Shown: positions 7,402-60,223 of the stretch, one piece after another | Numbering within the stretch: the first letter of the stretch is position 1 | Layout: every line of letters begins with the position of its first letter | NCBI GenBank assembly: GCA_019239825.1 | Contig: JAFAZK010000341.1 | Span: 31,570 to 95,569 of the forward strand | Source: Verrucomicrobiota bacterium | Lineage (GTDB): Bacteria > Verrucomicrobiota > Verrucomicrobiia > Chthoniobacterales > JAFAMB01 | DNA: 64,000 nucleotides | Direction: 5' to 3' | Made by a program: the position numbers and the translations under genes | Notes under the pieces: generated by a model | The model's database searches: none | What the model was told of the DNA's origin: nothing | The model's input: only the letters and a program-made list of their open reading frames with translations

Positions 7402-7456
7402 GAAATTGCGGTTTTTGTGACCACGTGTTGGGTAGCGCGCAAAGGCCGGATGGCTT

Positions 7457-7538
<82 letters not shown>

Positions 7539-7640
7539 TCGAAAATGATTGTGACCGAGCAAACTGGTTTGGCGTCCCTCTACAACCTTAGAAATGACTT
7601 AGCTCCCACTCTGTCCGTCGAGCACGAGCACGAAACGAGG

Positions 7641-8788: not shown

Positions 8789-8860
8789 ACAACTGCTTCC
8801 CCCCAGAAACTCTTTCTTTTTGCCGCTAGGCACTTAGCGGTCTAATCCTTCGGTTGTCAT

Positions 8861-8984
8861 CTTGGCCTGATCGTAGGAGTAATCAGTAATCAGTCGGTCA
8901 GTAATCAGTATTTTTGTCTTCTTCCGGATTTCAGAACTGATTACTGACACACTGATTACTGATTACTTCTACGATCAGGCCAAG
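8861..8984. repeat. Word-array palindrome (GTAATCAGT words), 49-nt arms, 26-nt loop
   Basis: The left arm 8861-8909 matches the reverse complement of 8936-8984 at 46 of 49 positions. The right arm ends 5 nt before the GNAT start codon. Confidence 0.95.
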
Positions 8985-8989
8985 ACGCA

Positions 8990-11638: not shown

Positions 11639-11644
11639 GCAATC

Positions 11645-12025
11645 GTGGAGCGCCGCCTTCCCGCGGCCGCGAAACGACGCCGAGTCGGTCGGAGCCTTGG
11701 AGGGGAGCCGCTTTTACCCATTCGCTGTAACCTGATCTATTCGCGCAAACAATCGTCGTATTTCTGAGAAGTTGTTTAGCAGGCGGCTCCCGGAAACGTC
11801 CCACGATGCGGTTCGTTCTTAACGCGTTGCATTGATACAGAACGAAGTGAATCACCGCGGGTTGTAGGGGCGTCAGGAAACGTTCGCGGGAGCCGCCCGC
11901 TCTCACAAGCCCAATCGGTAAGCGCGAGGTTTCGAGAACGTGCGAGCAAACGGGGTTTGGCTAAAAGCGGCTCCCCTCCAGGGGCGCCGGCTTCGTCTCG
12001 GGGCGGTGGGGAGTCGGCGCTCCAC
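11645..12025. repeat. GGGAGCCGC nested-palindrome element, copy A (+ orientation)
   Basis: Motif starts are 11703(+), 11783(-), 11888(+) and 11967(-). Outermost arms are GTGGAGCGCCG (11645) and CGGCGCTCCAC (12015). The 18-mer ACGTTCGCGGGAGCCGCC is at 11880. Confidence 0.9.
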
Positions 12026-12093
12026 GAGGAGGAAAACACGTCCACATTGGACTAAGTGCAAAATGCGGCTATTGCTTCCTACAATTTAAAGAG

Positions 12094-14222: not shown

Positions 14223-14410
14223 AATTTCACAGGAAGACCACAAAGAACACGAAGATCAGAAACAGAAGAACTTCCAATCAGTGGATTTAATTCACGGGCC
14301 CGGGATTTCGCAGGTGGAGGCAATATAAAAGATTTCACAACAAAGCCGTAAGGGAGACGAACAGGATTTTCTGTCTCTGATCTTTGTGTTCTTTGTGACC
14401 TTCTGTGATT
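14223..14410. repeat. Word-array palindrome (CACAAAGAACACGAAGATCAGA words)
   Basis: 14223-14267 matches the reverse complement of 14369-14410 at about 37 of 42 positions. The spacer is about 100 nt and contains GGGCCCGGG. Confidence 0.9.
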
Positions 14411-14414
14411 GATT

Positions 14415-15515
14415 TTATCTGACGTCTCGAATTTCGATCCGACTCAGCTCTGCGTTGCCTAACTGCATCGCAGCGGCGGTCTCGACGTATTTCGCCGTTT
14501 TAGAGACCGGATCCATTTTGGCGTCGACCCGCCATTTATCGAGTTGTTTAGAAGCGACCGCGTCGATTGAGACCGGGTCCTTGCTGGCATAAATGGTGCC
14601 GAAGTGGATGGCATAGTTCGCGTCTCCAAAGGGCGCACCGGCGTAGAGAGCAACCAGCCCGTCCATAATAGTGAGCACTATCTTTTGGCTGATCCTCGGG
14701 TCAGAATACATTTCCGGGATCGATTCGCCTTCATCAGGCGGTTGCACCAAACGGCGCCAATTGTCGACGTTTTGCACAGTCATGTTAAACATTGCCCCGG
14801 AAAGGCCACAATAGATGTTGTCGGCCAGGACCGGTACATTGATCACTTTAGTCACTACTTTGGTCAGGACTTTGCTGACATGACTCTCGTTGCTGATGTT
14901 GGCCGGCAGTCCCCTTTTTTTGTTATCTGCCTCCGCTTTGAGCTCCTCTTTGAAATTGGGGAGATTCTTTCCAACAAAAAACAAATCCCCATAGATCAAT
15001 TGGCCGGATACAGGGGAACTGAGGGCAACTTGAGGGTCATAATTGCCCTCGGACCATAGCACCCGGTAATCACCGACACGCGAATGGAATCCAGCTCTCT
15101 TAAGGAGTTCTTCTTCTCGATCCCAGACCACGATATTGTCCGCGGACACTCCGGCTTCTCTGAGACCATTGACGATCGCCTGGACTAAAGCCGGCCGGGT
15201 ACTGAAAAGCGGCGCTCCATTGGCGGAAACCTTGATTCCGACGATATCGTTCGGCTTTACCAAGGACGCCCAGGCAGCAGCGACGCTGCCTTCGCCGGTC
15301 ACAGACATCACTACGTCGTTCACCATTCTGGCGACGACAGAGTTATTCGTCTTGTAATCAAAAATCGCGTCCGGGCTTTCGGCCCGAACGACGATGGAGC
15401 GGGCCGGTACAGGGGTAGGGGTCGGCAAAGGCGCTGCCGGCGCTTCGTTCTCGGCGCCATAGCAGAACGTCGTCGCAAAAACGGCGGTTAGGGATACCTT
15501 GACGAGGACTCGCAA
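14415..15515 (-). CDS. Secreted hypothetical protein, DUF362-like
   Basis: TTG start with a signal-like N-terminus. SLVKPNDIVGIKVSANG..STRPALVQAIVNGLREAGVSADNIVVWDR resembles the DUF362 core, from memory. Confidence 0.65.
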   Translation of the reverse strand: MRVLVKVSLTAVFATTFCYGAENEAPAAPLPTPTPVPARSIVVRAESPDAIFDYKTNNSVVARMVNDVVMSVTGEGSVAAAWASLVKPNDIVGIKVSANGAPLFSTRPALVQAIVNGLREAGVSADNIVVWDREEELLKRAGFHSRVGDYRVLWSEGNYDPQVALSSPVSGQLIYGDLFFVGKNLPNFKEELKAEADNKKRGLPANISNESHVSKVLTKVVTKVINVPVLADNIYCGLSGAMFNMTVQNVDNWRRLVQPPDEGESIPEMYSDPRISQKIVLTIMDGLVALYAGAPFGDANYAIHFGTIYASKDPVSIDAVASKQLDKWRVDAKMDPVSKTAKYVETAAAMQLGNAELSRIEIRDVR

Positions 15516-15650
15516 GTTTTAAGTTCTAGGTTTTAAGTTTTGGGTTTTTGGGTTGAACCGGAACGTTGACAGAGCGTCTGTGTCGCCTCGCACCTATAAC
15601 TTAAAACCGAAAACGTAAAACTTATAACTTAAAACCGCCAACCTAGAACC
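15516..15650. repeat. Word-array palindrome (GTTTTAAGTT / AACTTAAAAC words) in a divergent promoter region
   Basis: The left array 15516-15554 is complementary in word content to the right array 15593-15650. Confidence 0.8.
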
Positions 15651-15651
15651 T

Positions 15652-16749
15652 GTGAGCCTGAGACATCTTTACGTTCATATTCCGTTTTGCCCCAAGGTTT
15701 GTCCGTATTGCAGTTTTTATAAAGAGGCGTCGGACCGGAACAAAACTCAGGACTTCCTTGATGCAGTCTTACTGGAGTTGGAAACCTTCGGATCTGATCG
15801 GGTTCAACCGCACACTATTTTTTTTGGCGGCGGAACGCCATCGGCATTGTCGACCCGGCAACTTGATTACTTGATCAGCGGGCTTCGGGAACGGCTTGAT
15901 CTGAGCGCCTTGCGTGAATGGACGCTCGAAATGAACCCGGCCACCGTCTCAGAAGAGAAAGCGGAACTCCTTTTGTCGCTGGGTGTGAACCGGATTAGCA
16001 TGGGGGTACAGGCTTGGCAGAGCGATTTACTGGCCCGGCTCGGGCGAGTCCATTCGGCTGCGCAAGCTCTCCGATCGTACCAGATTCTGCGCCGAGCCGG
16101 TTTCAAAAGAATCAATCTGGACCTGATCTTCGGTATCCCTGGGCAAACTCCCGCTCAGTGGCAAGAATCGCTTTTGCAGACCATCAATCTGGGCCCGGAA
16201 CATATCTCGGCCTACTGCTTAACCTACGAAGAAGACACCGAGTTTTTTCGACAACTCGCTATCGGGCAGCTTTCCCAGGACGAATTTCAAGATGCCGACC
16301 TGTTCGAGGTGACGATGGATACGCTGACCCGCGACGGCTATTCCCAATACGAAATTTCGAATTACGCATTGCTGGGCGAGGAATGCCTGCACAACCTGGC
16401 TTATTGGAGCGGCAACGATTATCTCGGACTCGGGCCCTCAGCGTTTTCCACGGTTTCGGGGCGTCGATGGCAGAACATTTCTAACACCAGCAGTTATGTT
16501 GAGAAAATTAAGCGTGGCGGGAATGCCCAGGCATTTTCGGAGTCACTAAGTTTGGAGACACAACTTAGTGAGAAAATCGTGTTCGGTCTGAGAATGAATC
16601 AGGGAATCGCCGAGGAACTATTGGCGCCGTGGTCGGCGAATGTTCAAGACCTTGAGGACGCCGGATACCTTCAACGCCGGGCCGGCACCATCAGCCTGAG
16701 CCGTTCAGGCCGGATGGTGGCGGATGCGATCGGCGAATTGTTTGTATGA
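15652..16749 (+). CDS. hemW: Radical SAM heme chaperone HemW (HemN-like, oxygen-independent coproporphyrinogen oxidase family)
   Basis: GTG start; YVHIPFCPKVCPYCSFY CxxxCxxC motif; 365 aa. Confidence 0.88.
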   Translation: MSLRHLYVHIPFCPKVCPYCSFYKEASDRNKTQDFLDAVLLELETFGSDRVQPHTIFFGGGTPSALSTRQLDYLISGLRERLDLSALREWTLEMNPATVSEEKAELLLSLGVNRISMGVQAWQSDLLARLGRVHSAAQALRSYQILRRAGFKRINLDLIFGIPGQTPAQWQESLLQTINLGPEHISAYCLTYEEDTEFFRQLAIGQLSQDEFQDADLFEVTMDTLTRDGYSQYEISNYALLGEECLHNLAYWSGNDYLGLGPSAFSTVSGRRWQNISNTSSYVEKIKRGGNAQAFSESLSLETQLSEKIVFGLRMNQGIAEELLAPWSANVQDLEDAGYLQRRAGTISLSRSGRMVADAIGELFV

Positions 16750-17837
16750 CAGATTGGGATGTGGCGGTGATCGGAGGTGGACCAGCCGGTTCAACCGCCG
16801 CTGCGTTCACCGCCAAAGCCGGGCTAAAGACTTTGTTGATCGATCGAGCGGTTTTCCCGAGGGAAAAAGTGTGCGGAGATTGCCTCAATCCGGGATGTTG
16901 GGAAGTATTCGATCAGCTCGGAGTCGCCGAGCAAATCGAGGGGCTACCTTCCGCTCGTTTACAATGGGTAGCTTTCACTAATATCGGCGGACGCCAGATC
17001 GAACACCGATTCCCAAACGCCGGTCCGCCCGAGACAGGCATCAGACGGAGTGTACTTGACCACGCGCTTCTCCTGAACGCAGAGAAAGCAGGCGCGGAAA
17101 TCTGGCAAGGTGAACCCGTCACCGGCGTCGAGCGCGGTTGGTTAGTTAAGACGGGTCGCCGGCAGCTCAGGACAAAATTCTTGGTGGCTGCCGACGGAAG
17201 AAATTCATCCGTAGCTCGATTCCTGGGCGCTTTCCCTCGAACCATAACTGACCGAGTCGCGTGCCAGACTTACTTTTCTGCGGACCGGCCGTCGCATGTT
17301 GCTCTAGAGCTCAACGACCTCGGATATATGGGTATAGGAACCGTAGGCGACGGAGCGGTAAATTTGTGCATCGTGGCGCGGCCTAAAAAGATCGAGGAAC
17401 TACGCTCACGAATATCAGAGCGTTTTGGACTTGCGCCCGAACAGCGTTGGAACACCGTGGCGCCCTTATTCCGCCGCCCTGTCGAAGCGGATGATCCCAC
17501 GCTCTTTTATGTTGGGGATGCTGCCCGTGTAGTCGAACCCTTCACCGGTGAAGGGATTTTTTACGCACTGAAATCGGGATCGCTAGCAGCGGAATCGATC
17601 ATCGATTCTCAAAGGAACGGCCCATCTTTCCGGCATCGGTACACAGAGCGTCATCGGCAGCTGTACGTAGGACGGCTGTGGATTAATCAGTTGGCGCGTC
17701 TGTCGGTCTTGCATCCGGGAATCAGTAGTAGGTGCCTGGAGATGTTGCGGTTTTGGCCATGGCCGCTCGAGGAGCTAACGCGACGAGTCGTGGGGATGAA
17801 CGGGGCGACGGTAGGGCGGGGCTCCCGAACAAGTTGA
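16746..17837 (+). CDS. FAD-dependent oxidoreductase (geranylgeranyl reductase family)
   Basis: DVAVIGGGPAGSTAAAFTAKAGLKTLLIDR dinucleotide-binding fold. ATGA overlap with hemW. Confidence 0.85.
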   Translation: MTDWDVAVIGGGPAGSTAAAFTAKAGLKTLLIDRAVFPREKVCGDCLNPGCWEVFDQLGVAEQIEGLPSARLQWVAFTNIGGRQIEHRFPNAGPPETGIRRSVLDHALLLNAEKAGAEIWQGEPVTGVERGWLVKTGRRQLRTKFLVAADGRNSSVARFLGAFPRTITDRVACQTYFSADRPSHVALELNDLGYMGIGTVGDGAVNLCIVARPKKIEELRSRISERFGLAPEQRWNTVAPLFRRPVEADDPTLFYVGDAARVVEPFTGEGIFYALKSGSLAAESIIDSQRNGPSFRHRYTERHRQLYVGRLWINQLARLSVLHPGISSRCLEMLRFWPWPLEELTRRVVGMNGATVGRGSRTS

Positions 17838-17856
17838 ACGTTCGGGAGCCTCGCCC
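17814..17856. terminator. Minimal GGGAGCC hairpin (REP-doublet-like) at a convergent junction
   Basis: GGCTCCCGAAC (17820-17830) pairs perfectly with GTTCGGGAGCC (17840-17850) and the stem extends to about 17 bp. The TGA of the oxidoreductase (17835-17837) lies in the loop. Confidence 0.6.
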
Positions 17857-17874
17857 TCCAATCAACGCAGGCGC

Positions 17875-18778: not shown

Positions 18779-19663
18779 ATGCAGATCGAAACCTTCAAAA
18801 TTTTCCGCGACTTGGTAGAAACCGCGAGCTTCTCTAAAGCGGCCGAACTGAACGCGATAACCCAGAGCGCCGTCAGCCAGCAAATCCGGGCATTAGAAAA
18901 AAGGTTCAAGACAGCGCTGATCCGGCGCCGGAAGAAAAACTTTTCTATCACACCAGAAGGGAAAGCTCTGCTGCAAGCGAGCCAAGAAATCCTCAGGACT
19001 TACGAGACCTTGGGGGATCGTTTGGAAGAGCTGAAGAACCACGTTTCTGGAAACCTGATCATTGCGACCGTACACAGCATCGGACTCCATGAATTGCCAC
19101 GGAGCTTGAAGCTTTTCCGGCGAACCTATCCCTCCGTCGATGTTAGTGTCGAGTATCTCCGATCGGCTCAAGTGTACCAAAGCGTAGCGGCAGGAAACAG
19201 CGATGTGGGGCTGGTGGCTTACCCCGCTAGGCATCGCGGGGTAACGGTTGAAAGTCACTGGAAGGATAAATTGGTGCTGATTTGTCCCCCAAATCACCGC
19301 TTGGCCAAACGCAGGAGCATTGAGATAAGCGCTCTCTCCGGCGAACACTTTATTTCATTCGCATTCGATCAGCCCACCAGGAAAGCGATTGATCGGATTT
19401 TCCGGGCTAACAGTGTCACGATTCGGCGATCCATGGAGTTCGACAATATTGAGACGGTAAAACGAGCGGTTGAGATCGAGAATGGGATTGCCATCGTGCC
19501 ACTAGCCTCGGTCGATGAGGAAACCGAAAACGAGAGTCTCTACGCGGTTGAGATCGAGTCAGTCGATATGTGGCGACCCATCGGACTAGTTCAACGCCGG
19601 GGCGAACCGAGCGCGGCCATCCGTGCCTTCGTCAGCCTATTGCGCAAACGAGATGTCTTGTAG
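18779..19663 (+). CDS. LysR family transcriptional regulator
   Basis: MQIETFKIFRDLVETASFSKAAELNAITQSAVSQQIRALE winged-HTH; 294 aa. Confidence 0.92.
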   Translation: MQIETFKIFRDLVETASFSKAAELNAITQSAVSQQIRALEKRFKTALIRRRKKNFSITPEGKALLQASQEILRTYETLGDRLEELKNHVSGNLIIATVHSIGLHELPRSLKLFRRTYPSVDVSVEYLRSAQVYQSVAAGNSDVGLVAYPARHRGVTVESHWKDKLVLICPPNHRLAKRRSIEISALSGEHFISFAFDQPTRKAIDRIFRANSVTIRRSMEFDNIETVKRAVEIENGIAIVPLASVDEETENESLYAVEIESVDMWRPIGLVQRRGEPSAAIRAFVSLLRKRDVL

Positions 19664-19801
19664 GGGTGATCGAATCGTGCTCGTGCGGATGTTGGGTGTG
19701 TCGTTGCTCGAGTGATCTGCGAGTCCGTTTAAAGAAACCAACCCCAGACCCTCCGAGCATGAGGACGAGCACGAGCGCGAGGACGATTCGATCACCCCTA
19801 C
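19660..19801. repeat. Palindrome with GCTCGT-type words at a convergent junction
   Basis: The reverse complement of 19660-19686 matches 19769-19801 at 27 of 27 positions, apart from a 6-nt insertion in the right arm. Confidence 0.9.
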
Positions 19802-19804
19802 ACC

Positions 19805-21442: not shown

Positions 21443-21472
21443 CCAGGGCGCTAGCTTCGCATTACCGATACC

Positions 21473-21555
21473 CGATAGCCAATAGCCAAACTTCGCATTA
21501 CCTACAGCCCATAATGCAGCATTATTGGCTAACGGCTATTGGCTATTGGCTATCG
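21473..21555. repeat. Word-array palindrome (ATAGCCAATAGCC words)
   Basis: CGATAGCCAATAGCCAA (21473-21489) is the perfect reverse complement of 21539-21555. Extra TTGGCTA words lie at 21525-21538. Confidence 0.9.
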
Positions 21556-21586
21556 ATAAGGCAAAGCGAGCCTAAGTCGAGCTTTG

Positions 21587-27749: not shown

Positions 27750-29330
27750 ATGAGTCAGGAGCCGAACAAGACAAACCCGACGTTTCAAAACGCTTCCGCC
27801 GAAGGTACCGCCCGTTCCAACCAGAGCCAGGCTGACTTCAAACCGGAGCCGGAACAGCTGGGCGAATTGCCTTCCGGTTACGGAGACATGTTCGTGGTCG
27901 CACGTGATCCTCATTGGCTCTACACCTACTGGGATTTCGACTATTCGAAGTTTCCCGAGCAACGTCAGCTTGGTTTGAAGGTATTCCGGGATAACGCGCT
28001 CGAAACGACGGTTGATATCAATGAGGTGGCCCGGAATTGGTACCTACCAGTACAAGCCGCAAACGCGAGCTACCGGGTTGTATTTGGGTACAAGGATAAC
28101 CAGGGCATGTGGCACTTTGTGGGCGAGGCTGGACCGGCACATACGCCACCGGAGGCGGTCAGTACGGAGTGGGATACGTTGTTTGCCACCGTCCCAATTC
28201 ATTTGACCTTTAATTTGCTGGTCGACGTCGTGGAAGCGGCGAAGAACCGGGGTGAACCCCTCGCTGAAGCGTTAGCGCGGTTGCAGCAGGCGGCGTTCAA
28301 TGGCGGCAGCCGTTCTCCCAACTGGGGTCCGGCGCAGCTGCAAATGTTGGAAACCTTGTTCGGAAAAGAACTTCTGACCCGATTGTCCTCGATGAACTCG
28401 TCCGAACTATCGACGTTTCTTCGAGCGGATCTTTCTGCTCCGAGCAGCTCAGAGTCGGCAAGCGAACTTGTCGCTAAGAGCCGGCTAGCCCAACTATTAG
28501 TCCCGGCGGAATCAAGCCTGTTCAGCGGCGGTATATTCGGAGCTGCTTTATCCAGCGAAGTGTTTCAAAGTGGCGGAGCACTAAATTCAGCGGCTCTAAG
28601 TTCTTTTGGGCTAAGCTCCGGGGAACTCGTCTCTCGTCTCAGTAGCATGGGTTTAAGCTCGGCCGAGATCGCAACTTTTTTGAGTAGTGCAACTCTCAGT
28701 AGTGAAACTCTCAGCAGCGCTGGCCTCAGCAGTGCGGAGCTCAGTTCGGGGTTGTTCTCTCAATTACAAATCAATCTGGCCGAGTTAAGTTCGCTCGGCC
28801 TAAGTTCATTTGAGCTCAGCTCGGCCGCGTTAAGTTCCGAACGATTCGGCGCGTTACAACTGGCTGCAATAGAAATGGGAGCGTTAAGCTCCGAGCAACT
28901 TAGCTCAGCTTGGTCAAGTAGCTGGAGCGGTCTGGAGTTCGGGCTCTCGAGTTGGGGCGAGTTAGTCTCCGAAAGCAGCTTATTCAGCGCGGCGGGCGCA
29001 AGTTGGGGCGGTGAATCGTTCGGGTTGACCCAGCGTGAGTTCTTCATGCACGTCAACGCCGAAGTGATTTTCTACGGTGGAACTCATCCGGAGGCGAAAG
29101 TCACGGTTGCCGGTCAGCCGATCCAACTTCAGCCAGATGGAACTTTCCGTTACCATTTCATTTTCCCGGATCGCGATTTCGAAATCCCAATCGTGGCGAT
29201 TTCTCCCGACGGAAAAGAGACCCGCTCGGCTACGTTATTCTTCCGAAGAGAAACGACTCGGCAAGGCGATGTCGGTCACACCGCTCAACCACCCTATCTG
29301 GCGGAACCGATGGGAGCTACTCATCAGTGA
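27750..29330 (+). CDS. DUF4912-like protein with central LSS-repeat region
   Basis: N-terminal LPSGYGDMFVVARDPHWLYTYWDF, remembered as the DUF4912 signature. The central region has at least 18 LSS tripeptides. C-terminal beta-rich domain FFMHVNAEVIFYGGTHPEAKVTVAGQPIQLQPDGTFRYHF. Confidence 0.85.
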   Translation: MSQEPNKTNPTFQNASAEGTARSNQSQADFKPEPEQLGELPSGYGDMFVVARDPHWLYTYWDFDYSKFPEQRQLGLKVFRDNALETTVDINEVARNWYLPVQAANASYRVVFGYKDNQGMWHFVGEAGPAHTPPEAVSTEWDTLFATVPIHLTFNLLVDVVEAAKNRGEPLAEALARLQQAAFNGGSRSPNWGPAQLQMLETLFGKELLTRLSSMNSSELSTFLRADLSAPSSSESASELVAKSRLAQLLVPAESSLFSGGIFGAALSSEVFQSGGALNSAALSSFGLSSGELVSRLSSMGLSSAEIATFLSSATLSSETLSSAGLSSAELSSGLFSQLQINLAELSSLGLSSFELSSAALSSERFGALQLAAIEMGALSSEQLSSAWSSSWSGLEFGLSSWGELVSESSLFSAAGASWGGESFGLTQREFFMHVNAEVIFYGGTHPEAKVTVAGQPIQLQPDGTFRYHFIFPDRDFEIPIVAISPDGKETRSATLFFRRETTRQGDVGHTAQPPYLAEPMGATHQ

Positions 29331-29814
29331 GACGTGAGAAGTGATTGGTGAGAAGTGAGAGGTGCAGCGAGGCCTGAGTCCCGATAAAGTCCTCCGTCCG
29401 CGGATCAGCCGCGAAGCGGCTTAAGAATGCAGCCCAGGGCTGTCATTCCTCGGTCAATCGCGCAATAGGAGTCGGCCTGAAAGTGGCGGCCGAAGCTTGG
29501 CTTTGCGGCATGGACGTGTTGATCTAACCGATCGCACCAAGGCCCCGAACTAACACATCAAATCCGAGTCCGACATCCGCGGGCGCCACTTTCAGGGGGC
29601 TGACCGGCGCCGACAAAACCAGGGCTGAAGCCCGGGCTGTACTCTTCAGCCGCTTCGCGGCTCGCCCGGCCACCTCACACCCTTCGACACGCTCAAGGCT
29701 TGCCTTTTTCGAGCTTGTCGACCCGCCCAGGGCAGGCCTTTCACCTCTCACCTTTCACCTCTCACCTCTCACCTCTCACCTTTCACTTCTCACTTCTCAC
29801 TTCTCACATCTCAG
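29327..29814. repeat. Composite nested palindrome: GTGAGAAGTGAGA word arrays enclosing two further inverted-repeat pairs
   Basis: Outer arrays are 29327-29364 and 29737-29814. The middle pair is 29404-29441 with 29621-29663 (CAGCCGCGAAGCGGCT..). The inner pair is 29472-29492 with 29579-29602 (CCTGAAAGTGGCG / CGCCACTTTCAGG). Confidence 0.9.
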
Positions 29815-29853
29815 ATTGTCCGCAGAGGCGATCCTTAGTACACTTCATGGCAC

Positions 29854-30747
29854 ATGGGGTTTCCTAAAAAGGATCGTTTGCTAGAGCGGTTCATTCAGTA
29901 TCAAGAAGTCGAACGCTCAGCATCGCCTCGGACGATCACGGCTTATCGGCATGCGCTCCTGCGGTTTAAACAATTTCGCGATGTAAGCTGGGATACCGCA
30001 ACCGCAGCCGACTTTCGATTGTTCCTGCTTGAGTGCATGAAATCCGGGATGGCTCGCAGCTATGTCCGGTTAACGTTCGCTGCGCTCAGGAGCTTTTACC
30101 GTTTCCTGACAGAACGAGCGGGATTCAGCGAAAATCCCTTAAAGGAGGTACAGTTGCCCAAGCTGGAGAAAAAGTTGCCCGTTGTCCTTTCGCTCAATCA
30201 GGTAGACGAATTGTTGAGCCAGCCAGCACGAACCGAGAGGAAAAACCAGGCTCCGGCTTGGTCAGCGTCTCGGGATGCGGCCATTCTAGAGCTGTTTTAT
30301 AGCAGCGGACTGCGGTTAAGCGAACTGGTCTCTCTCAATGTCGGTGACGTGGATCTTTACACAGAATCGGTTCGTGTGATCGGCAAAGGGAGAAAGGAAC
30401 GGGTCGTTCCCGTAGGTGCACCAGCGTTGGAAGCGATTCAGAAGTACCGTTCTCAGGCAACGGTTCATACTGGGCCACTTTTTATTAGCAAGCTCCGCAA
30501 ACGGATTACGGCTCGCTCCGTCTGGATGATTCTGAAGAAACATTTGGGCGAGACCTCGATCCAATTGCCCGCGACTCCCCACAAGCTCAGGCATAGCTTC
30601 GCCACGCATCTGTTAGAGAACGGCGCCGATCTTCGCAGCGTTCAAACCTTGCTTGGCCACGAGAGCCTTTCGACGACGCAGATTTATACGCATGTCACGG
30701 TTGAGCGGCTGAAGAAGGCGTACGATGAGGCCCATCCACGGGCGTAA
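29854..30747 (+). CDS. Tyrosine recombinase XerC/XerD family
   Basis: 297 aa. N-terminal SAM-like domain (SPRTITAYRHAL) and catalytic residues in ..LRLSEL.., HKLRHSFATHLL, LGHESLSTTQIYTHV. Confidence 0.88.
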   Translation: MGFPKKDRLLERFIQYQEVERSASPRTITAYRHALLRFKQFRDVSWDTATAADFRLFLLECMKSGMARSYVRLTFAALRSFYRFLTERAGFSENPLKEVQLPKLEKKLPVVLSLNQVDELLSQPARTERKNQAPAWSASRDAAILELFYSSGLRLSELVSLNVGDVDLYTESVRVIGKGRKERVVPVGAPALEAIQKYRSQATVHTGPLFISKLRKRITARSVWMILKKHLGETSIQLPATPHKLRHSFATHLLENGADLRSVQTLLGHESLSTTQIYTHVTVERLKKAYDEAHPRA

Positions 30748-30860
30748 AAGTAGAAGATACAACCGCGAATGAACACGAATTAAGCCTCCAACCGCAAACA
30801 GGCGTTGATTCGCTCGAAACCTGCTAACGGTAGGGTTGATCTCCCGACGAAGCGCGTAGC

Positions 30861-31134
30861 GGTTAAACAGGCGGCTCCCGGGAATTACCGCACATAATGT
30901 TTTGCCCATCGCTCGGTTCGGACGGCTATTGTCTGCTTAACGGGCCGACAGAACTAACAAGCGTCGAGACGTTCGCGGGAGCCGCCTGTTTAATGCGGTT
31001 TGCGTTGTGCAACGCAGCGACACAAATAGCGCGGGGTCTTAGGATGCGATCCAAAGCGGCTCCCCTCCAAGCGGCGCTCCGAAAAGAATCTCGCCAGATC
31101 TTTTGGGTACGTTCAAGAGCGGCTCGCCTCCAGC
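30861..31134. repeat. GGGAGCCGC nested-palindrome element, copy B (+ orientation, left outer arm missing)
   Basis: Motif starts are 30871(-), 30977(+) and 31056(-), plus a degenerate extra arm AGAGCGGCTCGCCTCCAG at 31117-31134. The 18-mer is at 30969. Confidence 0.9.
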
Positions 31135-31224
31135 CGCACTCGTGTGTCAAACCGGAGCTCATCGCTGCCGTCACTCTTGCGCTCGGGCACGAGAGGTGTC
31201 AGGTACAGGTTTCTCGTTTTACTC

Positions 31225-33033
31225 ATGCCCTCTCAAACTATCCCGACCAGAAGTGAAATTGCGGAAGCCGACACCTGGGATCTGAAGAAGCTGTATCAAA
31301 CTGAGCAAGATTATCAGCAAGATCTCGAGAAGCTGAAAAAGGAGTACCCTCAGTACGCCTCATACAAAGGGAAGGTTGGCCAGTCAGCCCAGGATTTACT
31401 CGACGTCCTCGAATTCGATAAAGCGGTTGATCTTTTGGCGGAGAGACTTGGGCACTATGTGTCTTTGAAAGCATCTGAGGATAGCTCCGATCGGGAGAAT
31501 CTTGCACGAAAGGCGGAGTTCTCGAACTTGGGTACGAAGATCAGAGAGGTAGCCTCATTCCTTACCCCGGAAATTCAGGCTATCCCGGATGAACGTTTCG
31601 CGATTCTGACGGCCGATCCGCTACTTAAAGATTGGCGAAATTCGTTGGAACGCCTCAGGCGTTACCGGCCGCACACGCTTTTGGAAGGAGAAGAAAAAAT
31701 CTTAGCTGCGGGCGCTTCCGCCGTTCGAGGACATCGCGAGACGTTCTCTCAACTCACTAACGTCGATATGATCTTCGGTGTTGTCCCGGATGATAAGGGT
31801 CAAGAGGTTGCGCTCTCGCAAAGCAGCTACATCTCTCTTTTGCATAATCGAGATCGCAAAGTCCGGCGACGCGCATTCGATCAATTTTACCGGGAATTCT
31901 CGGATCACCGCTATACGCTGGCCTCTTCCTTGTCGGCTTCAGTTCGAGCCGATGTCTTTTATGCCAGGGTCCGCAATTACCCGAGCGCATTGGAATCTGC
32001 TCTCTTCGGAGATCACGTCCCAGTCGCGGTGTATGATAATCTGATCGCGACGGTCAGAAACAATCTGTCGGCGCTGCACGATTACTATGACCTGAGAAGA
32101 GAGCTCTTGGACCTGGAGAATATTCACCAGTATGACACGTTCGTTCCGTTGTTTCCGGAGGTCGCCAAAACGGTCGACTTCGATGAAGCCATGGAACTAG
32201 TGACGACTTCATTAGAACCTTTGGGAGAAGAATATGTCGCAACCCTGCGAGGGGGCCTGAAATCGCGCTGGGTGGATCGGTATGAAACGAAGGGTAAACG
32301 CAGCGGCGCTTTTTCTTCTTCCAGCTACAAGAACCCGCCCTTCATTTTGATGAATTATCGAGCGGATGTTCTGTCTGATGTCTTTACCCTGGCACATGAA
32401 GCGGGTCATTCGATGCACAGCTGGTTCGCCCAGGAGAACCAGCTATTTCAGGACTACGGTTATCCTATTTTTCTGGCCGAGGTCGCCTCTACTTTTAATG
32501 AGGAGCTTTTGACTCACCATCTATTGCAGCACGCGGATGACGACCGGCTACGCGCTTTTCTAATCGATCGCCAGATCGAAGACATTCGGTCCGTCTTGTT
32601 TAGACAGACGATGTTTGCCGAATTCGAAAAACAAATTCACGCGATCGAAGAGGGAGGCGGACCTCTGACCTTAGATGTTTTCCAGGAGCGGTATCGCGAG
32701 TTATTGGCGGCCTACTTTGGACCACGGTTTACGCTGGATGAAGCGCTCAATCTCGAGTGTCTCAGGATCCCCCATTTTTACTCGGCGTTCTATGTCTACA
32801 AATATGCGACTGGTATCTCTGCGGCAGTGGCTTTAGCGCAGCGAGTTCTCCACCAAGGAGCACCTGCAGTTCAGGATTATCTCGGATTTCTGAAATCGGG
32901 AGGGTCGCGATATCCCATTGAGACCCTGCAAGCTGCCGGGGTGGATATGCTGACGCCCAGTCCGATTCAAGAGACCATTGAACTGTTTAAGCGGAGGCTG
33001 CAGGAGCTGCGGGGATTGGTGAAGAAAGGGTGA
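31225..33033 (+). CDS. pepF: Oligoendopeptidase F (M3B)
   Basis: Start taken at MPSQTIPTRSEIAEADTWDLKKLY. HEAGH zinc motif (LAHEAGHSMH). Confidence 0.9.
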   Translation: MPSQTIPTRSEIAEADTWDLKKLYQTEQDYQQDLEKLKKEYPQYASYKGKVGQSAQDLLDVLEFDKAVDLLAERLGHYVSLKASEDSSDRENLARKAEFSNLGTKIREVASFLTPEIQAIPDERFAILTADPLLKDWRNSLERLRRYRPHTLLEGEEKILAAGASAVRGHRETFSQLTNVDMIFGVVPDDKGQEVALSQSSYISLLHNRDRKVRRRAFDQFYREFSDHRYTLASSLSASVRADVFYARVRNYPSALESALFGDHVPVAVYDNLIATVRNNLSALHDYYDLRRELLDLENIHQYDTFVPLFPEVAKTVDFDEAMELVTTSLEPLGEEYVATLRGGLKSRWVDRYETKGKRSGAFSSSSYKNPPFILMNYRADVLSDVFTLAHEAGHSMHSWFAQENQLFQDYGYPIFLAEVASTFNEELLTHHLLQHADDDRLRAFLIDRQIEDIRSVLFRQTMFAEFEKQIHAIEEGGGPLTLDVFQERYRELLAAYFGPRFTLDEALNLECLRIPHFYSAFYVYKYATGISAAVALAQRVLHQGAPAVQDYLGFLKSGGSRYPIETLQAAGVDMLTPSPIQETIELFKRRLQELRGLVKKG

Positions 33034-33282
33034 GCGTTCCGTAGGACAAAAGCGCTGAGTGTCTTCCTATTTTTTTGGCCATCACGAGGAACAAATACAT
33101 GAAAGTATCAGCCCTTTTGCGATCGATTCTAAAAAAGCCATATCTGCCATAATTATCATGTATTCGAAGGTTGAAATTCGAACTTCAAACTTTATCTTCC
33201 GCAGTGGCCCGGGCGGCCCGATGGAAACAGGTCCATCAGGTTCCCGGTTCTGACGCAGTATCCAACAAGAGAGGGCAAAGCT

Positions 33283-33471
33283 ATGGTAACTGATGGAAAA
33301 GCGGCGGAAGAGACCGTCAACACGCTCGTGGCAGACGGACTAAACGTATCAAAGCTATCGGCAATGAATCCCAGTGAGCTTTTTAGGCTCGCGGCAGACC
33401 TCGGCTTAGCGCTTGAACCGGTGCCGAGTTCTACCCTCGAAGACCTTCGGCTCAACCGGTACATTGAGTAA
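33283..33471 (+). CDS. Hypothetical 62-aa protein with Rho_N/SAP-like helix-extended-helix motif
   Basis: GAGAGGG lies 7 nt upstream of the ATG. LNVSKLSAMNPSELFRLAADLGL resembles the Rho N-terminal motif. Two hairpins follow the gene. Confidence 0.45.
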   Translation: MVTDGKAAEETVNTLVADGLNVSKLSAMNPSELFRLAADLGLALEPVPSSTLEDLRLNRYIE

Positions 33472-33482
33472 CAGAACGTTAG

Positions 33483-33564
33483 GGATGAGCTACCGCTCAT
33501 CCGCATTCCGTTCGAGAGTTATAACGCCAGCACCAATATAGGGATGAGCAGGGGCACATCCCTA
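33483..33564. terminator. Two short hairpins built from the GGGATGAGC word at a convergent junction
   Basis: GGATGAGC-tacc-GCTCATCC (33483-33502) and TAGGGATG-N10-CATCCCTA (33539-33564). Confidence 0.5.
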
Positions 33565-33571
33565 ACGGATC

Positions 33572-34597
33572 CTAGTACGCCGCTTGTGCGCCTTTGATAT
33601 TCTTCTTCTGAATCCAGGGCATCAATGAGCGAAGCTTTTGCCCGACCTTCTCAACCGGGTGTTTCTGGCCTGCGGCTAGCAAGTCTTTGTAGGTTGAGAG
33701 ACCGCTTTTGTATTCGTCGATCCAACCTTGAGCAAATTTGCCATTTTGGATCTCTTTCAACGCCCGTTGCATCTTCTTCTTCACGCTAGCGTCGATGATC
33801 TTCGGGCCGACCGATACATCACCCCATTTCGCGGTCTCAGAGATCGAGAATCGCATGCCGGCAATACCGGACTCGTACATCAGATCTACGATCAACTTCA
33901 GTTCATGAAGACATTCGAAATAGGCCATCTCGGGCTGGTAGCCAGCCTCGACCAAGGTCTCAAAACCATTCTGAACCAGGGCGGTGAGGCCGCCACAAAG
34001 GACGGTCTGCTCGCCAAAAAGATCGGTCTCGGTTTCCTCTTTAAACGAGGTTTCTAAGACTCCGGCGCGCGTGGCTCCAATCCCTTTTGCCCAAGCCAAA
34101 GCGAGCTTTTTAGCCTTCTTTGATGGGTTCTGGTAAACCGCGATCAACGCCGGTACGCCCTTACCTTCAAGGTACTGACGTCTGACGATATGCCCGGGAC
34201 CTTTCGGCGCAACCATGATCACGTCGACGTTCTCAGGAGGAACGACCGTCTTAAAGTGAATGGCAAAACCGTGACTGAAAAGCAGTGCCTTACCATCAGT
34301 GAGATTCGGTTTAACCTCTTGTTCGTAAATCGCCGCAGTTTTCAGGTCAGGCGTCGCGAAGAAAATGATATCGGCCTTCTTTACCGCGTCAGCCACGTCG
34401 AACGTCTCGAACCCATGTTCTTTTGCTACCGGAATCGACTTGCTGCCTTTGTAAAGCCCCACGATCACATTGATCCCACTATCCTTGAGGTTGAGGGCAT
34501 GGGCATGCCCCTGAGAACCGAACCCAATCACCGCGCAGGTCTTTCCCTGCAGGTTTTTCAAGTCGGCGTCCTTATCGGTATACACTTTTGCTGGCAT
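33572..34597 (-). CDS. ilvC: Ketol-acid reductoisomerase
   Basis: MPAKVYTDKDADLKNLQGKTCAVIGFGSQGHAHALNLKDSG..; class I KARI, 341 aa. Confidence 0.95.
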   Translation of the reverse strand: MPAKVYTDKDADLKNLQGKTCAVIGFGSQGHAHALNLKDSGINVIVGLYKGSKSIPVAKEHGFETFDVADAVKKADIIFFATPDLKTAAIYEQEVKPNLTDGKALLFSHGFAIHFKTVVPPENVDVIMVAPKGPGHIVRRQYLEGKGVPALIAVYQNPSKKAKKLALAWAKGIGATRAGVLETSFKEETETDLFGEQTVLCGGLTALVQNGFETLVEAGYQPEMAYFECLHELKLIVDLMYESGIAGMRFSISETAKWGDVSVGPKIIDASVKKKMQRALKEIQNGKFAQGWIDEYKSGLSTYKDLLAAGQKHPVEKVGQKLRSLMPWIQKKNIKGAQAAY

Positions 34598-34618
34598 AAA
34601 GCTTGGCGCGAGAAAGAG

Positions 34619-35095
34619 TTATTCGACTCTGGCCATAGCGACACGGCCTGTCCGAGTCAGATCGCTGATCCCAAAATTCTCCATCAAACGCAGGAACTTA
34701 GTGATTTTGCTTTCGTTCCCGGTGATTTCGATGGCGAGACGCTTTGGCTGAACATCTACGATCTTAGCGCGAAAAATATCGCAGATTTGCATGACCTCGG
34801 ACCGATTTTCGGAATCGGCATTCACACGGAGCATGACCAACTCCCGGTCCACGTAGCCGCCATCTCTAAAGTCCTGTATTTCGATGACGTCGATCAGCTT
34901 ATGTAATTGCTTTGTGACCTGCTCGAGGACGGTGTCATCACCGCGTACTACGATCGTCATACGGGAAGTCGAAGGATCGTTGGTCGGCGCGACATTCAAG
35001 CTGTCAATATTGAATCCGCGCCCACTAAACATGCCCGCAACGCGTGTGAGCACGCCGAAGCGGTTCTCAACTAGAATCGAGATTGTGTGGCGCAT
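34619..35095 (-). CDS. ilvN: Acetolactate synthase small (regulatory) subunit
   Basis: MRHTISILVENRFGVLTRVAGMFSGRGFNIDSL ACT domain; 158 aa. Confidence 0.92.
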   Translation of the reverse strand: MRHTISILVENRFGVLTRVAGMFSGRGFNIDSLNVAPTNDPSTSRMTIVVRGDDTVLEQVTKQLHKLIDVIEIQDFRDGGYVDRELVMLRVNADSENRSEVMQICDIFRAKIVDVQPKRLAIEITGNESKITKFLRLMENFGISDLTRTGRVAMARVE

Positions 35096-35312
35096 AGGGA
35101 AAAGACCTGAACCATCCCGCGAACATAAATAAAATCAATCCAATTCTGGTATTCCTGGGCAGATATGCGTGAGGAACACGCGGTTCCGATTACGGGAAAC
35201 CCGGATAGGACCTATACGACTAATGGGACTTATATAACTGGGTGACGGGCTATCGCTGAGTGAACGAAATGCTAGAAACGTCGGCATGCCCATGGCATTC
35301 TGCGGCGCCGTT

Positions 35313-35897
35313 ATGACAATTTTTACTCCGCCTGAGAAACTGTACAAAGGGTATATTTTTGACTGTGACGGGACGCTGGCGCATTCGATGCCGGTCCATT
35401 ATGCAGCCTGGCGACAGACCGCGGAAGAGAATGGGGTGGCGATGTCGGAAGAGCTTTTTTACAGCCTGGGTGGAGTCCCGACGACCAGGATCGTGGAGAT
35501 TCTGAACGAGAAATTCGGGGCCAAGATGGATCCGGAACAGGTCGCTAAACGCAAAGAAGAGGTTTACGTCCAGAACATGGCCGAGACGAAGCCGATTGAG
35601 GAAGTGACCACATTTGCTCGGAAGGTGGCTGCGTTCGCCAAAGTGTCGGTTGCTTCCGGTGGATATCTCCCGGTGGTCGAGAAAACCTTGGAGGTGATCG
35701 GGTTTAAAGACTTTTTCCCTGTCATCGTGACAACTGAACAGGTCACCCGGGGTAAGCCTTTTCCGGACATGTTCCTGGAAGCTGCTAAGCGCATGGGCGT
35801 GGCGCCGAATGAATGTTTGGTGCTTGAAGATAGCCCAGCGGGCATTGAGGCGGCCAAAGCCGCGGGGATGGATTACAGTTTCATCGGCAGGCCGTGA
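35313..35897 (+). CDS. HAD-superfamily hydrolase (beta-phosphoglucomutase-like subfamily IA)
   Basis: YIFDCDGTLA motif I, SGG motif II and EDSPAGIEAAKAAGM motif IV. The start is uncertain (35286 or 35313). Confidence 0.8.
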   Translation: MTIFTPPEKLYKGYIFDCDGTLAHSMPVHYAAWRQTAEENGVAMSEELFYSLGGVPTTRIVEILNEKFGAKMDPEQVAKRKEEVYVQNMAETKPIEEVTTFARKVAAFAKVSVASGGYLPVVEKTLEVIGFKDFFPVIVTTEQVTRGKPFPDMFLEAAKRMGVAPNECLVLEDSPAGIEAAKAAGMDYSFIGRP

Positions 35898-36257
35898 TTG
35901 CGAAACGGCGATGGGGCGATGGGCGCGAAAGCGCAGCCTGGAGGGGAGCCGCTTTAGAATGTGCCTAAGGATCCCGCGATTTAGTTCGAGCGCGACGAAG
36001 TCCGAAATCGGTGTTAAACAAGCGGCTCCCGCGAATTACCGCACGCGATGTTTTGTCCCAGCGTCGGGCTCGGAGATTATTCATCCGCTTAGCCGGCCGA
36101 CATACCCAACACGCGTTGAGACGTTCGCGGGAGCCGCCTGTTTAACGAGATCTGCGGTCAGGCAACGCTCCTGGAAGAAATATGGCGGGGTCTTTTTGTG
36201 CGATCCAAAGCGGCTCCCCTCCAGGCGCCGTTTCGCCCCTTCGCCGTTTCGCAAATC
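35896..36257. repeat. GGGAGCCGC nested-palindrome element, copy C (+ orientation, complete), flanked by GCGAAACGGCGATGGGG word arms
   Basis: Motif starts are 35944(+), 36022(-), 36129(+) and 36210(-). The 18-mer is at 36121. Outer word arms are 35896-35934 and 36226-36257. The element fills the whole convergent intergenic space. Confidence 0.92.
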
Positions 36258-37233: not shown

Positions 37234-37328
37234 GAGATGGTTTATTACAAAAATTACTTTTGCGCAATTGAGAGAACTGAAAGGAAAAATGTTCTCAAGC
37301 CGGCGTTTTCCAGGTAAACTCGGGCCGG

Positions 37329-37937: not shown

Positions 37938-37970
37938 GGTTCCGACGACTGGCCGGGAACATTCGCGCCC

Positions 37971-40256: not shown

Positions 40257-40285
40257 CCACAGCTTGTATCGTGGAGAGATGAGCC

Positions 40286-41506: not shown

Positions 41507-41533
41507 TCGCGTTTGGCGTTTGGGACGTTCGAG

Positions 41534-41820
41534 GCTGGAGGGGAGCCGTTTGGATCGTGCTCCCGGGAGACCCTCTATATTTGTCAAGGCGCGCCTGGGA
41601 CCGGAAACCTTGTTAAACAGGCGGCTCCCGCAAACGTTTCAACGCGTGCTAGGTCTATGGGATGGTTCACCGGAGGATAACAATCTCCGAGGCGAACGAT
41701 GGGCGGAACATTGCGTGCGGTAATTCGCGGGAGCCGCCTGTTTAACACTCTGTTTGGCCTTCCTCGCGCTCGAACAAATATCACGAGACCTTTAGGCACG
41801 ACCTAAAGCGGCTCCCCGCT
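41534..41820. repeat. GGGAGCCGC nested-palindrome element, copy D (reverse orientation)
   Basis: Motif starts are 41541(+), 41621(-), 41729(+) and 41808(-). The core 41632-41726 is the reverse complement of the cores of copies B and C. The 18-mer lies on the reverse strand at 41620-41637 with one mismatch. Confidence 0.92.
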
Positions 41821-41846
41821 ATGGCGCTTCGCGCATCCCTTTCCCC

Positions 41847-57290: not shown

Positions 57291-57642
57291 GACGAAATCG
57301 CGAATGGGCGATTGGGCGAAACGGCGATGCGGCGAAAACTTGGTGGGGCGAGAGCCTGCCGCGCCGTAGGCCTTGCGAAGGCGGGCTCCCGAACGTTCAA
57401 AGCGCCTTGTCAGCGCCGCTGAGGTCCGTGACGGATGTGATGTCCTTGGGCCTTTACGCTTGTCGAGCCGTTCCGTGGGGGTGCTAATACGCTGAGTCGC
57501 GGCTCGGCACGCCACTCGGCCTAGCACCGTCACTCGGTTTAACTACATCGAGTCCTTCGTTTGAGCTTTTTGGCTTTTCGGGAGCCTCGCTCTACCAGTT
57601 CGAGCGCCCATCGCCGTGTCGCCCCATCGCCCATTCGCCGCG
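57291..57642. repeat. Degenerate GGGAGCC element (copy F, reverse orientation) inside GCGAATGGGCGATTGGGCGAAACGGCG word arms
   Basis: GGCGGGCTCCCGAACGTTC lies at 57381-57399 and TTTTCGGGAGCCTCGCTC at 57576-57593. The word arms are 57291-57338 and 57602-57642. Confidence 0.75.
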
Positions 57643-59836: not shown

Positions 59837-59920
<84 letters not shown>

Positions 59921-60167
59921 CCACGCCGAACCGCCTGGAGGGGAGCCGCTTTATACGGTGGCAAGGTCTATCGGTTGGCAGCAGGCGGCTCCCGAAAACT
60001 ACACAGCGCGTGGAATTTACCCACGATGTTAGGGGCTTGCGGCCAGGAACATCCGAAAAGGCGTTAGAACAAACACCTGATAGAAACGTTCGCGGGAGCC
60101 GCCTGCAGCCACCTTATAGAGCTGCCACATCGCGAAGCGGCTCCCCTCCGGGCGCGGTTCGGCGTGG
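59921..60167. repeat. GGGAGCCGC nested-palindrome element, copy E (+ orientation, short outer spacers)
   Basis: Motif starts are 59941(+), 59985(-), 60094(+) and 60137(-). The 18-mer is at 60086. Flanks are CCACGCCGAACCGCC and GGCGCGGTTCGGCGTGG. Confidence 0.92.
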
Positions 60168-60223
60168 CACGTGACGGCTCGAATTGAGGACGACGACGAG
60201 TACGAGAAGCAATACACCGCATA

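Follow-up and report, generated by a model that had tools for sequence, protein, structure and literature searches.

A lineage-specific family of four-box nested palindromes in the intergenic DNA of Chthoniobacterales resembles REP-, BIME- and MITE-type repeats

What is the large nested palindrome at positions 11645-12025 of a 64-kb stretch of Verrucomicrobiota DNA, and why do palindromes like it recur between the surrounding genes? The stretch (GenBank assembly GCA_019239825.1, contig JAFAZK010000341.1, positions 31,570 to 95,569), which we refer to in its whole length of 64,000 nucleotides as the window, had been described in an earlier note, in which the palindrome is copy A of a dispersed, polar sequence family built on four alternating copies of the 9-mer GGGAGCCGC (hereafter the box). 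[quoted passage not shown] Our analysis indicates that the palindrome is probably a non-autonomous, mobile-derived DNA repeat of a Chthoniobacterales lineage, working like the REP/BIME/REPIN and MITE classes. It belongs to a family of nested intergenic palindromes of 210-380 nt, whose interest lies mainly in being built in layers and in turning over at fixed sites between genes.

That the family exists in the window can be seen from the motif itself. The box has 18 exact matches where 0.97 would be expected, a number reached by none of 100 shuffled sequences, and all 18 are confined to five clusters (copies A to E) in which they stand in + - + - orientation at fixed spacing. The start-to-start spacings are 80/105/79 in copy A, -/106/79 in B, 78/107/81 in C, 80/108/79 in D, whose first box reads GGGAGCCGT, and 44/109/43 in E. 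The 18-mer ACGTTCGCGGGAGCCGCC, which contains the inner-right box, occurs without mismatch at 11880, 30969, 36121 and 60086; a further occurrence, at 41620 on the minus strand, differs at one position. A MAFFT alignment showed that the five regions share one architecture, with copies B, C and D (reversed) alignable through spacers and core. In each of these particulars (box positions, order and spacings for all five copies, the five 18-mer positions, and the B/C/D alignment) the earlier description was reproduced. An nhmmer census with long- and short-class profiles built solely from copies in other genomes, the window's own copies being excluded, recovered exactly five elements, A, B, C, D and E. 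The six long copies and one minimal hairpin counted previously are in this way reduced to five four-box copies, the palindrome at 57340-57597 and the hairpin at 17810-17859 representing a related, distinct family. Polarity, also claimed, is present but weak, as the family profile scores both strands almost equally. The note had further placed all of some 26 GGGAGCC/GGCTCCC cores between genes or in last codons; we count 25, and this holds for all except those at 8344, within a 115-aa open reading frame (ORF) lacking a Pfam match, and at 58133, within a histidine-kinase gene, both of which look like chance matches. The region 11645-12025 folds as a nested hairpin (DNA z = -7.4, RNA z = -8.6), and this hairpin is the minimum-free-energy fold of the unit.

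How the unit is built was determined from 69 inner-pair matches, 64 in related genomes and the five of the window, in 49 of which both outer boxes could be located. The conserved unit measures about 275 nt in a long class and about 205 nt in a short class (detected units, 205-290 nt), running from (CCCAGCG)CCTGGAGGGGAGCCGCTTT to its mirror sequence, and each unit carries its four boxes as two nested pairs, the inner one reading (GTTAAA)CAGGCGGCTCCCG / CGGGAGCCGCCTG(TTTAAC). Pooled over copies, the outer box has the consensus ccCAgcGCCTGGAGGGGAGCCGC(TTT), and the inner box CGcTGGGTcGTTCCCGGGAGCCGC(CTGTTTAAC). In copy A the outer-left box GGGAGCCGC lies at 11703..11711 (+) inside CTTGGAGGGGAGCCGCTTTT, the inner-left box at 11783..11791 (-; GCGGCTCCC on the + strand), the inner-right box at 11888..11896 (+) inside the 18-mer, and the outer-right box at 11967..11975 (-) inside AAAGCGGCTCCCCTCCAGG. 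Two discrete classes of spacer separate outer from inner boxes, one of 72-79/72-79 nt (typically 74/74) and one of 38-39/38-39 nt (38/38), and the core between the inner boxes measures 87-103 nt. Outer arms of 18-26 nt are 92-100% complementary. Spacer and core sequences differ among subfamilies, the spacers diverging to near-randomness between them, and arm variants are combined in mosaic fashion across copies.

Because the paired spacers of a copy are only weakly complementary (mean local score 24.8 vs 16.9 for mismatched pairs) and the core halves are not mutually complementary, the unit is best described as four pairing boxes at fixed distances and not as one continuous 150-bp stem. Short-class copies such as E approach a continuous stem. 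Neither the box GGGAGCCGC nor its extended forms (CCTGGAGGGGAGCCGCTTT; CAGGCGGCTCCCG) contain an internal hairpin or a GTAG or CGTC tag. The heptamer CCCAGCG, which about 25% of arms carry outside outer boxes and inside inner boxes, belongs to the family consensus and is not copy-specific; for this reason a single arm (outer box, spacer, inner box) moving with a 7-nt CCCAGCG duplication was ruled out as the mobile unit. Apparent solo arms proved to be four-box units with a mutated box, or truncated halves.

The family is not confined to the window. Scanning one genome per species with the inner-pair pattern GCGGCTCCCG-N85-115-CGGGAGCCGC yielded at least 109 loci, of which at least 64 matches lie in metagenome-assembled genomes (MAGs) of Verrucomicrobiota with 53-58% GC, representing five MAG species of Chthoniobacterales (CAVXLD01, JAFAHI01, JAFAIO01, JAFAVN01, DASUWQ01). 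The product of the window's own purD gene is 91% identical to a protein labelled Chthoniobacterales at NCBI. Among the matches listed, an outer box stands at the expected place in 62 of 64 Verrucomicrobiota matches (both outer boxes in 45 of 64), as opposed to 0 of the 48 that fall in other phyla, in Streptomyces and further GC-rich genomes. The latter therefore provide a clean control, and the four-box architecture is lineage-specific. No match to the family was found in annotated plasmid and phage records, and targeted full-text literature searches nowhere linked the motif or the lineage to such repeats.

Within the lineage, the claim of a true dispersed family is borne out by the recurrence of subfamilies at loci that are not orthologous, in five or more related MAG species. 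For the B/C/D subfamily 12 loci were found, and similarity among its members starts at CTGGAGGGG and stops at CCCCTCCAG, exactly at the outer boxes. Subfamily A was found at three different loci of one MAG (L075, L099 and L106; L numbers denote loci in relatives), and its similarity reaches some 50 nt further on each side, to GTGGAGCGC ends (CGTGGAGCGCTGCCTCGCTTGCGAGGCCG... and its mirror sequence). Non-orthologous copies are 78-88% similar over 280-380 nt with sharp common boundaries. At L045 (2789-3288) two short-class units lie in direct tandem about 110 nt apart, which shows that four-box units can form clusters too.

The further reach of subfamily A leads to a second property of the family, its habitual nesting in other palindromes. 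The outer layer of copy A is an independent REP-like palindrome, family 3, which consists of a tag (GTGGAGCG) followed by a GCCTCGC-TT-GCGAGGC hairpin and which is found alone at site C in L112 and at site A in L142/L143 (sites are named after the window copy that they hold). In the window, degenerate family-3 arms (GTGGAGCGC...GCGCTCCAC) at 11643-11696 and 11983-12027 enclose the long-class four-box unit at 11697-11982 (nhmmer E = 7e-45), and together they form the composite at 11643..12027 (+; inverted repeats I5 and I21). Since subfamily A shares the family-3 layer across loci and family 3 occurs alone elsewhere, copy A represents a family-3 element with a four-box unit nested at its center, and the composite as a whole has spread; the family-3/four-box junctions are identical at different loci. 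Other copies are surrounded by a CGTCCTCGAAAG-type layer, by GGCGAWW, TAAGCAG or GTGAGAA heptamer arrays, or by copy-specific palindromes. A clean heptamer array lies within 200 nt of 7 of 49 units and is mirrored in 2. Overall, 43% of flanks are palindromic beyond the 95th percentile of mismatched controls, as expected if copies sit within further layers. The idea that copy-specific palindromic flanks form a covarying outer stem was rejected, these being largely shared layers (family 3, CGTCCTCGAAAG-type and heptamer arrays) that evolve very fast.

A third property emerged when five sites were compared across 30 syntenic metagenome loci, identified via a neighboring PBP2-like protein, and a further 18 identified via purD homologs. 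The comparison of related genomes proposed in the earlier note revealed variation not only in presence and absence but also in the occupant of orthologous sites. At site A (between purD and an S41 peptidase gene), the window carries family 3 plus a four-box unit. In L013 and L030 the same composite is inverted, the flanks being colinear at 86-92% identity and the element matching on the opposite strand at 85-87%. Loci L142-L144 hold family 3 with a different center between flanks 93-94% identical to those of the window, L147-L149 an unrelated fifth palindromic family (arms GGTAGCCTGGCATGRAATGCCTGG... and mirror sequence), L150-L157 another long-class four-box subfamily, and L158/L159 a short-class unit. 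Site D is occupied by a four-box unit in the window and L016, and by family 2 in L117, L125 (95% flank identity), L137, L120 and L111. At site C the window and L135 have a four-box unit; L113 and L126 have a family-2 element there, L112 has family 3, and L120 has a simple hairpin. Site X, finally, is only 33 nt long in the window; L135 and L114 carry a four-box unit at this position, and other relatives other palindromes.

Within the unit, identity between orthologs is 80-98%; the DNA immediately beyond the outer boxes differs by 39-55%. Inversion happens occasionally in evolution and does not act as a switch, since eight contigs from eight samples of one lineage all show a single element orientation; frequent inversion was rejected on the same grounds. 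The filled site X of L114 can be compared with the empty sites of L116/L128: a resident (AACGAAGG)n palindrome has the unit at its midpoint, bordered on both sides by some 63 additional nt, and these extra stretches are of equal length and not complementary. Insertion with an inverted target duplication was considered and rejected, the extra flanks in L114 and L135 being no more complementary than chance.

The five four-box copies of the window and the at least 64 in relatives are all intergenic, and units lie at gene 3' ends. In the window, elements are present in 4 of the 11 spacers between convergent genes, in 3 of the 34 tandem ones and in 0 of the 11 divergent ones. The ORFs of the window are housekeeping genes (among them purD, ilvC/N, PBP2-like, proA/B-like, lexA, an Hsp70-family chaperone), with the exception of one recombinase. 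This XerC/D-like tyrosine recombinase gene (29854-30747, +) scores 315 bits against XerC, with an equivalog cut-off of 335; its neighbors are a nested palindrome of 490 nt (29326-29813) on one side and copy B on the other, and its synteny is kept in L113, L120 and L126. Terminator-like sites between 28000 and 44000 number 21, vs 19 +/- 4.4 in shuffled sequence, and none is found at gene ends adjoining elements.

Taken together, these observations point to an element that works like known classes of repeat and is not a member of any: it has no REP hairpin unit or tag, no REP-associated tyrosine transposase (RAYT) was found, there is no target-site duplication, and no parent insertion sequence was found. 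How might such a unit spread? The boxes may be what an enzyme with its gene elsewhere in the genome recognizes in order to copy or recombine the unit, most plausibly in its extruded hairpin or cruciform form. Our leading guess for this enzyme is a Y1 HUH transposase (RAYT/IS200-like), as the lack of target-site duplication and the dependence on a hairpin would fit a single-strand-specific HUH enzyme; an alternative candidate is a tyrosine recombinase, which would fit the attC-like order of the boxes. The centers of resident palindromes may be preferred targets, giving rise to the onion-like composites, which can themselves spread. Recombination or template switching between nested arms could then lead to in-place inversion, replacement of the center, or deletion, which would account for occupant turnover between close relatives. 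In transcripts that include it, the long hairpin may, without any U-tract, terminate transcription or protect RNA ends.

It is tempting to speculate further, though we offer this only tentatively and as an idea rather unlikely to hold, that these palindromes are self-nesting replicators that home into, or are exchanged as cassettes at, the centers of resident palindromes via their shared GGGAGCC-type boxes. Onion-like elements would then be made by an enzyme not yet linked to such repeats, the host would keep the gene-end hairpin as a substitute for an intrinsic terminator, and mirrored heptamer arrays would be a by-product of hairpin-templated slippage.

Several observations weigh against a mobile origin. 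No mobilizing gene was identified: a Pfam search of the approximately 58 ORFs of the window found housekeeping functions and the single XerC/D-like recombinase, with no Y1 or DDE transposase, in line with the earlier statement that the window holds no RAYT/IS200-type gene. The Escherichia coli RayT protein, used as a single phmmer probe against 815 kb of related loci that cover small fractions of their genomes, gave a best E value of 0.83, and clustering of ORFs near elements returned no recurrent transposase-like ORF, only ABC transporters, short-chain dehydrogenases/reductases and binding proteins. A parent insertion sequence was sought as an outer-box pair 0.5-5 kb apart without inner boxes, and none occurs in about 1 Mb. 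At the ends of B/C/D and A subfamily copies there is no target-site duplication, the flanks often being inverted instead, and the filled sites of L114 and L135 differ from empty ones by more than the conserved unit, so that insertion is not clean. The best paralog identity within one genome is only 88%, and no recent burst is seen in the sample; accordingly, either the family is old or our sample missed young copies. Neither are the boxes significantly slower-evolving than the spacers between orthologs (13/155 vs 72/520 differences), and box-specific purifying selection between orthologs is therefore not significant. A viable alternative, in which no transposase is needed, is gene conversion among resident palindromes anchored on the boxes that they share.

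That the elements are not mobile at all, and that palindromes grow in situ at gene ends through template switching and hairpin slippage and come to resemble each other by convergence or occasional gene conversion, would agree with the palindromic yet often copy-specific flanks, with the many other window spacers that contain mirrored tandem-heptamer palindromes, and with the ceiling of 88% on paralog identity. Convergence, however, cannot produce 78-88% similarity over 280-380 nt with sharp boundaries at non-orthologous loci, and two discrete length classes and identical family-3/four-box junctions at different loci also speak against growth in place, which we hold to be very unlikely. In favor of a role at the RNA level, the unit folds very stably as RNA, lies at gene 3' ends and never in divergent spacers, and stands where canonical intrinsic terminators are not enriched; moreover, nearly every orthologous site holds some long palindrome of whatever family. 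A structured RNA would here be a long hairpin of the 3' untranslated region (a terminator without U-tract, an RNase III/E substrate, an mRNA stabilizer or a small RNA) with the boxes as RNA motifs. The sequence comparisons argue otherwise. Arm-to-arm mismatches in 49 elements comprise 175 G:T, 189 A:C and 350 others, with no link to core polarity, and RNAalifold applied to 10 copies gave an unfavorable covariation term (+2.06), only the invariant boxes pairing consistently and spacer pairs often being broken. Rfam returned no hit at the gathering threshold and, at an E-value threshold, only microRNA-precursor noise (26 bits vs a cut-off of 168). Both orientations relative to neighboring genes occur, core and spacers are not complementary, and a run of six wobble pairs in the B/C/D consensus was not upheld across copies. 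Selection at the RNA level is supported neither by the even split of G:T and A:C mismatches nor by the RNAalifold result, and the structured-RNA option left open in the earlier note now appears unlikely; the data favor a symmetric DNA-level element, with which a non-specific hairpin role in transcripts is compatible.

Site-specific recombination is a further candidate that turnover brings to mind. If the units were attC- or dif-like sites, the boxes would be bound by a tyrosine recombinase once the strand is folded, with cassette-like exchange of units at fixed intergenic sites, which would agree with the differing occupants of one site in genomes 90-95% identical, the absence of target-site duplication, and the XerC/D-like recombinase gene at 29854-30747. 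The box order also matches that of attC, with two nested inverted pairs and with outer and inner duplexes of opposite polarity. The R box of attC has the consensus GTTRRRY / RYYYAAC, which GTTAAAC / GTTTAAC beside the inner boxes fit. Yet the gap between boxes is 38 or 74 nt and not the 5-8 nt of an attC or dif core, the heptamer order is opposite to that of attC, elements are dispersed singly among housekeeping genes without cassette arrays, the recombinase scores as an ordinary XerC/XerD that is syntenic in relatives, and no integron integrase was found, all of which makes this reading quite unlikely. Highly improbable, finally, is an inverton, that is, a unit flipping often between its inverted arms to switch the expression of a neighboring gene. 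Nested inverted repeats do surround an asymmetric core, and copy A in its entirety has the opposite orientation, at the same place, to its L013 and L030 orthologs; but inversion is seen only between species, 8 of 8 contigs of one lineage being co-oriented, and the D/L016 and C/L135 ortholog pairs each share one orientation. Pfam found no invertase among the window ORFs, a single 16-kb scan (28000-44000) found no promoter-like site within copies B, C and D, and elements lie at 3' ends and not upstream of genes. A mobile-derived DNA repeat is the favored explanation.

With which known repeats does such an element compare? The family resembles the BIME, REPIN and MITE kinds without strict membership in any, and in the searched literature and databases it was not found described. 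A REP unit is an imperfect palindrome of 20-40 nt with a conserved terminal tetranucleotide tag, GTAG or CGTC (PMC3733652), and BIMEs are defined by regularly spaced motifs in alternating orientation (Nunvar 2010, PMC2817692). Like the BIMEs of Enterobacteria and Pseudomonas, the present elements are extragenic, high in copy number and located at gene 3' ends, with alternating + - + - motifs, mosaic arm variants and discrete spacing classes, and they serve as landing sites for other elements, much as IS1397 and IS621 target REPs (Delihas 2011, PMC3184786). In contrast to BIMEs, the box (9-18 nt) does not by itself form a small hairpin bearing a GTAG or CGTC tag, boxes stand 38-105 nt apart with sequence-variable spacers where BIMEs have short conserved linkers, and exactly four boxes make up the array, which as a whole forms a single nested palindrome, with no RAYT found. 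The REP hairpin building blocks (Y and Z types) and short conserved linkers characteristic of BIMEs are thus absent from the four-box unit. The family-3 arms (GTGGAGCG plus hairpin) are the more REP-like part. With REPINs the family shares inverted motif pairs at conserved spacing that form a hairpin, the lack of target-site duplication, long vertical persistence at orthologous sites, and an enzyme expected to be single-copy and encoded elsewhere; like REPs and REPINs, it is high-copy, extragenic and lineage-restricted (five copies in 64 kb, at least 64 in five MAG species). It differs from them in having two nested pairs instead of one, in the absence of a RAYT from the searched sequence, and in its best paralog of 88%, where REPIN populations usually contain many identical master copies.

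Similarity to MITEs such as ERIC/IRU, Correia and Nezha is likewise partial. These too are 100-400 bp long, carry terminal inverted repeats, fold into long hairpins, contain no ORF and lie at 3' ends, and ERIC elements have size variants that result from internal insertions at fixed points. Unlike MITEs, the present elements lack a target-site duplication, have no parent insertion sequence with matching ends in the roughly 1 Mb searched, contain a second internal inverted pair on the same 9-mer, and are habitually nested in other palindromes. Location at 3' ends and lack of coding capacity are among the described features of MITEs (Delihas 2011, PMC3184786). In Xanthomonas, intergenic (GGGAATC)n arrays face (GATTCCC)n, and these convergent heptamers are able to form stem-loops (Rehm 2015, PMC4692102). 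The window arrays at 8860-8985, 15514-15635, 29326-29813 and 57300-57638 are similar to these; in our case, however, such mirrored heptamers are the outermost layer around some elements and not the four-box unit. Integron attC sites offer a last parallel, with four nested boxes (R''-L''...L'-R'), a variable center, recognition of the folded strand and no target-site duplication, and are set apart by a box spacing about ten times smaller than here, by cassette arrays and an integron integrase, neither seen here, and by a heptamer order swapped relative to ours.

If our reading is true, uncultured Chthoniobacterales devote most long intergenic spacers to layered palindromic repeats that are described in no database. 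Annotating the family would avoid spurious ORF calls, such as those at 59836-60174 and 35809-36330, and would help to explain contig breaks in metagenomes. One intergenic site with five occupants in genomes that are 90-95% identical would be a natural system in which to study the gain, replacement and inversion of REP-like elements, and the family could show whether such elements replace terminators in a lineage without canonical ones. By itself, the family reveals no new biochemical mechanism.

The remaining copies of the window differ in completeness and surroundings. Copy B (30859..31071, +) is a long-class unit without the outer-left arm, covering only profile positions 76-285, and is adjoined at 31075..31133 (+) by a degenerate outer-arm remnant (AGAGCGGCTCGCCTCCAGC; profile positions 227-284, nhmmer E = 2e-6). 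Copy C (35936..36225, +; inverted repeats I2 and I23; nhmmer E = 3e-58) is a complete long-class unit, 98% identical to its ortholog in L135 and flanked by mirrored GGCGAWW-type arrays at 35898-35935 and 36226-36262. Copy D (41535..41817, -; I22 and nhmmer), also complete and long-class, has reversed core polarity and degenerate outer boxes (GGGAGCCGT; CCCCGC), and lies in the same orientation as its ortholog in L016. Copy E (59934..60152, +; I13; short-class hidden Markov model E = 1e-37) is of the short class with 38/38-nt spacers and is nested in a copy-specific palindrome, TGCCACGCCGAACCGC (59919-59934) / GCGGTTCGGCGTGGCA (60154-60169). To its left is a perfect hexamer array, (TGCTCG)11.3 at 59837-59904, of which the right-side mirror is only degenerate (GACGACGACGAGTACGAG). 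Mechanically called ORFs run through copies C (35809-36330, 173 aa) and E (59836-60174, about 112 aa), and these are spurious gene calls of the kind that GC-rich palindromes produce; a 109-residue 'gene' has been called across the element in L155 and L156.

Related palindromes are represented in the window by a family-2 element with box order - + - + at 57340..57597 (flank repeat I17), a family seen elsewhere at orthologous sites C, D and X. Its ends read TTGGTGGGGCGAG..GCTCCCGAACG and TCGGGAGCCTCGCTCTACCA, its inner pair is GAGCCG / CGGCTC, and it carries a 32-nt insertion at 57353-57384. A minimal hairpin at 17810..17859 (GGTAGGGCGGGGCTCCCGAAC...GTTCGGGAGCCTCGCCCTCC) consists solely of terminal arms of the family-2 type, and the final codons of ORF 16746-17837 overlap it. 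The unoccupied site X is located at 37938..37970 (33 nt), its relatives holding four-box units (L135, L114), family 2 (L113) or other palindromes. The 32-nt insertion of the family-2 element (AGCCTGCCGCGCCGTAGGCCTTGCGAAGGCGG) belongs to a hairpin module of about 30 nt that in L030, L010, L120 and L088 reads CCTG(Y)CCGCCATAGCTTTAGCGACGGAGGA, and that is inserted within the arms or loops of other palindromic elements as a further nesting layer. Palindromes also occupy the window spacers at 8860-8985, 14233-14403, 15509-15656, 19659-19802, 21450-21571, 29326-29813, 54254-54460 and 57300-57638, and in several of them the arms are tandem 7-8-mers facing their reverse complement, such as (AGTAATC)n/(ACTGATT)n and (AGTGAGA)n/(CCTCTCA)11. 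A second perfect hexamer array, (TCGTGC)8.5, lies at 7455-7541 and adjoins (TTGGCGT)5.

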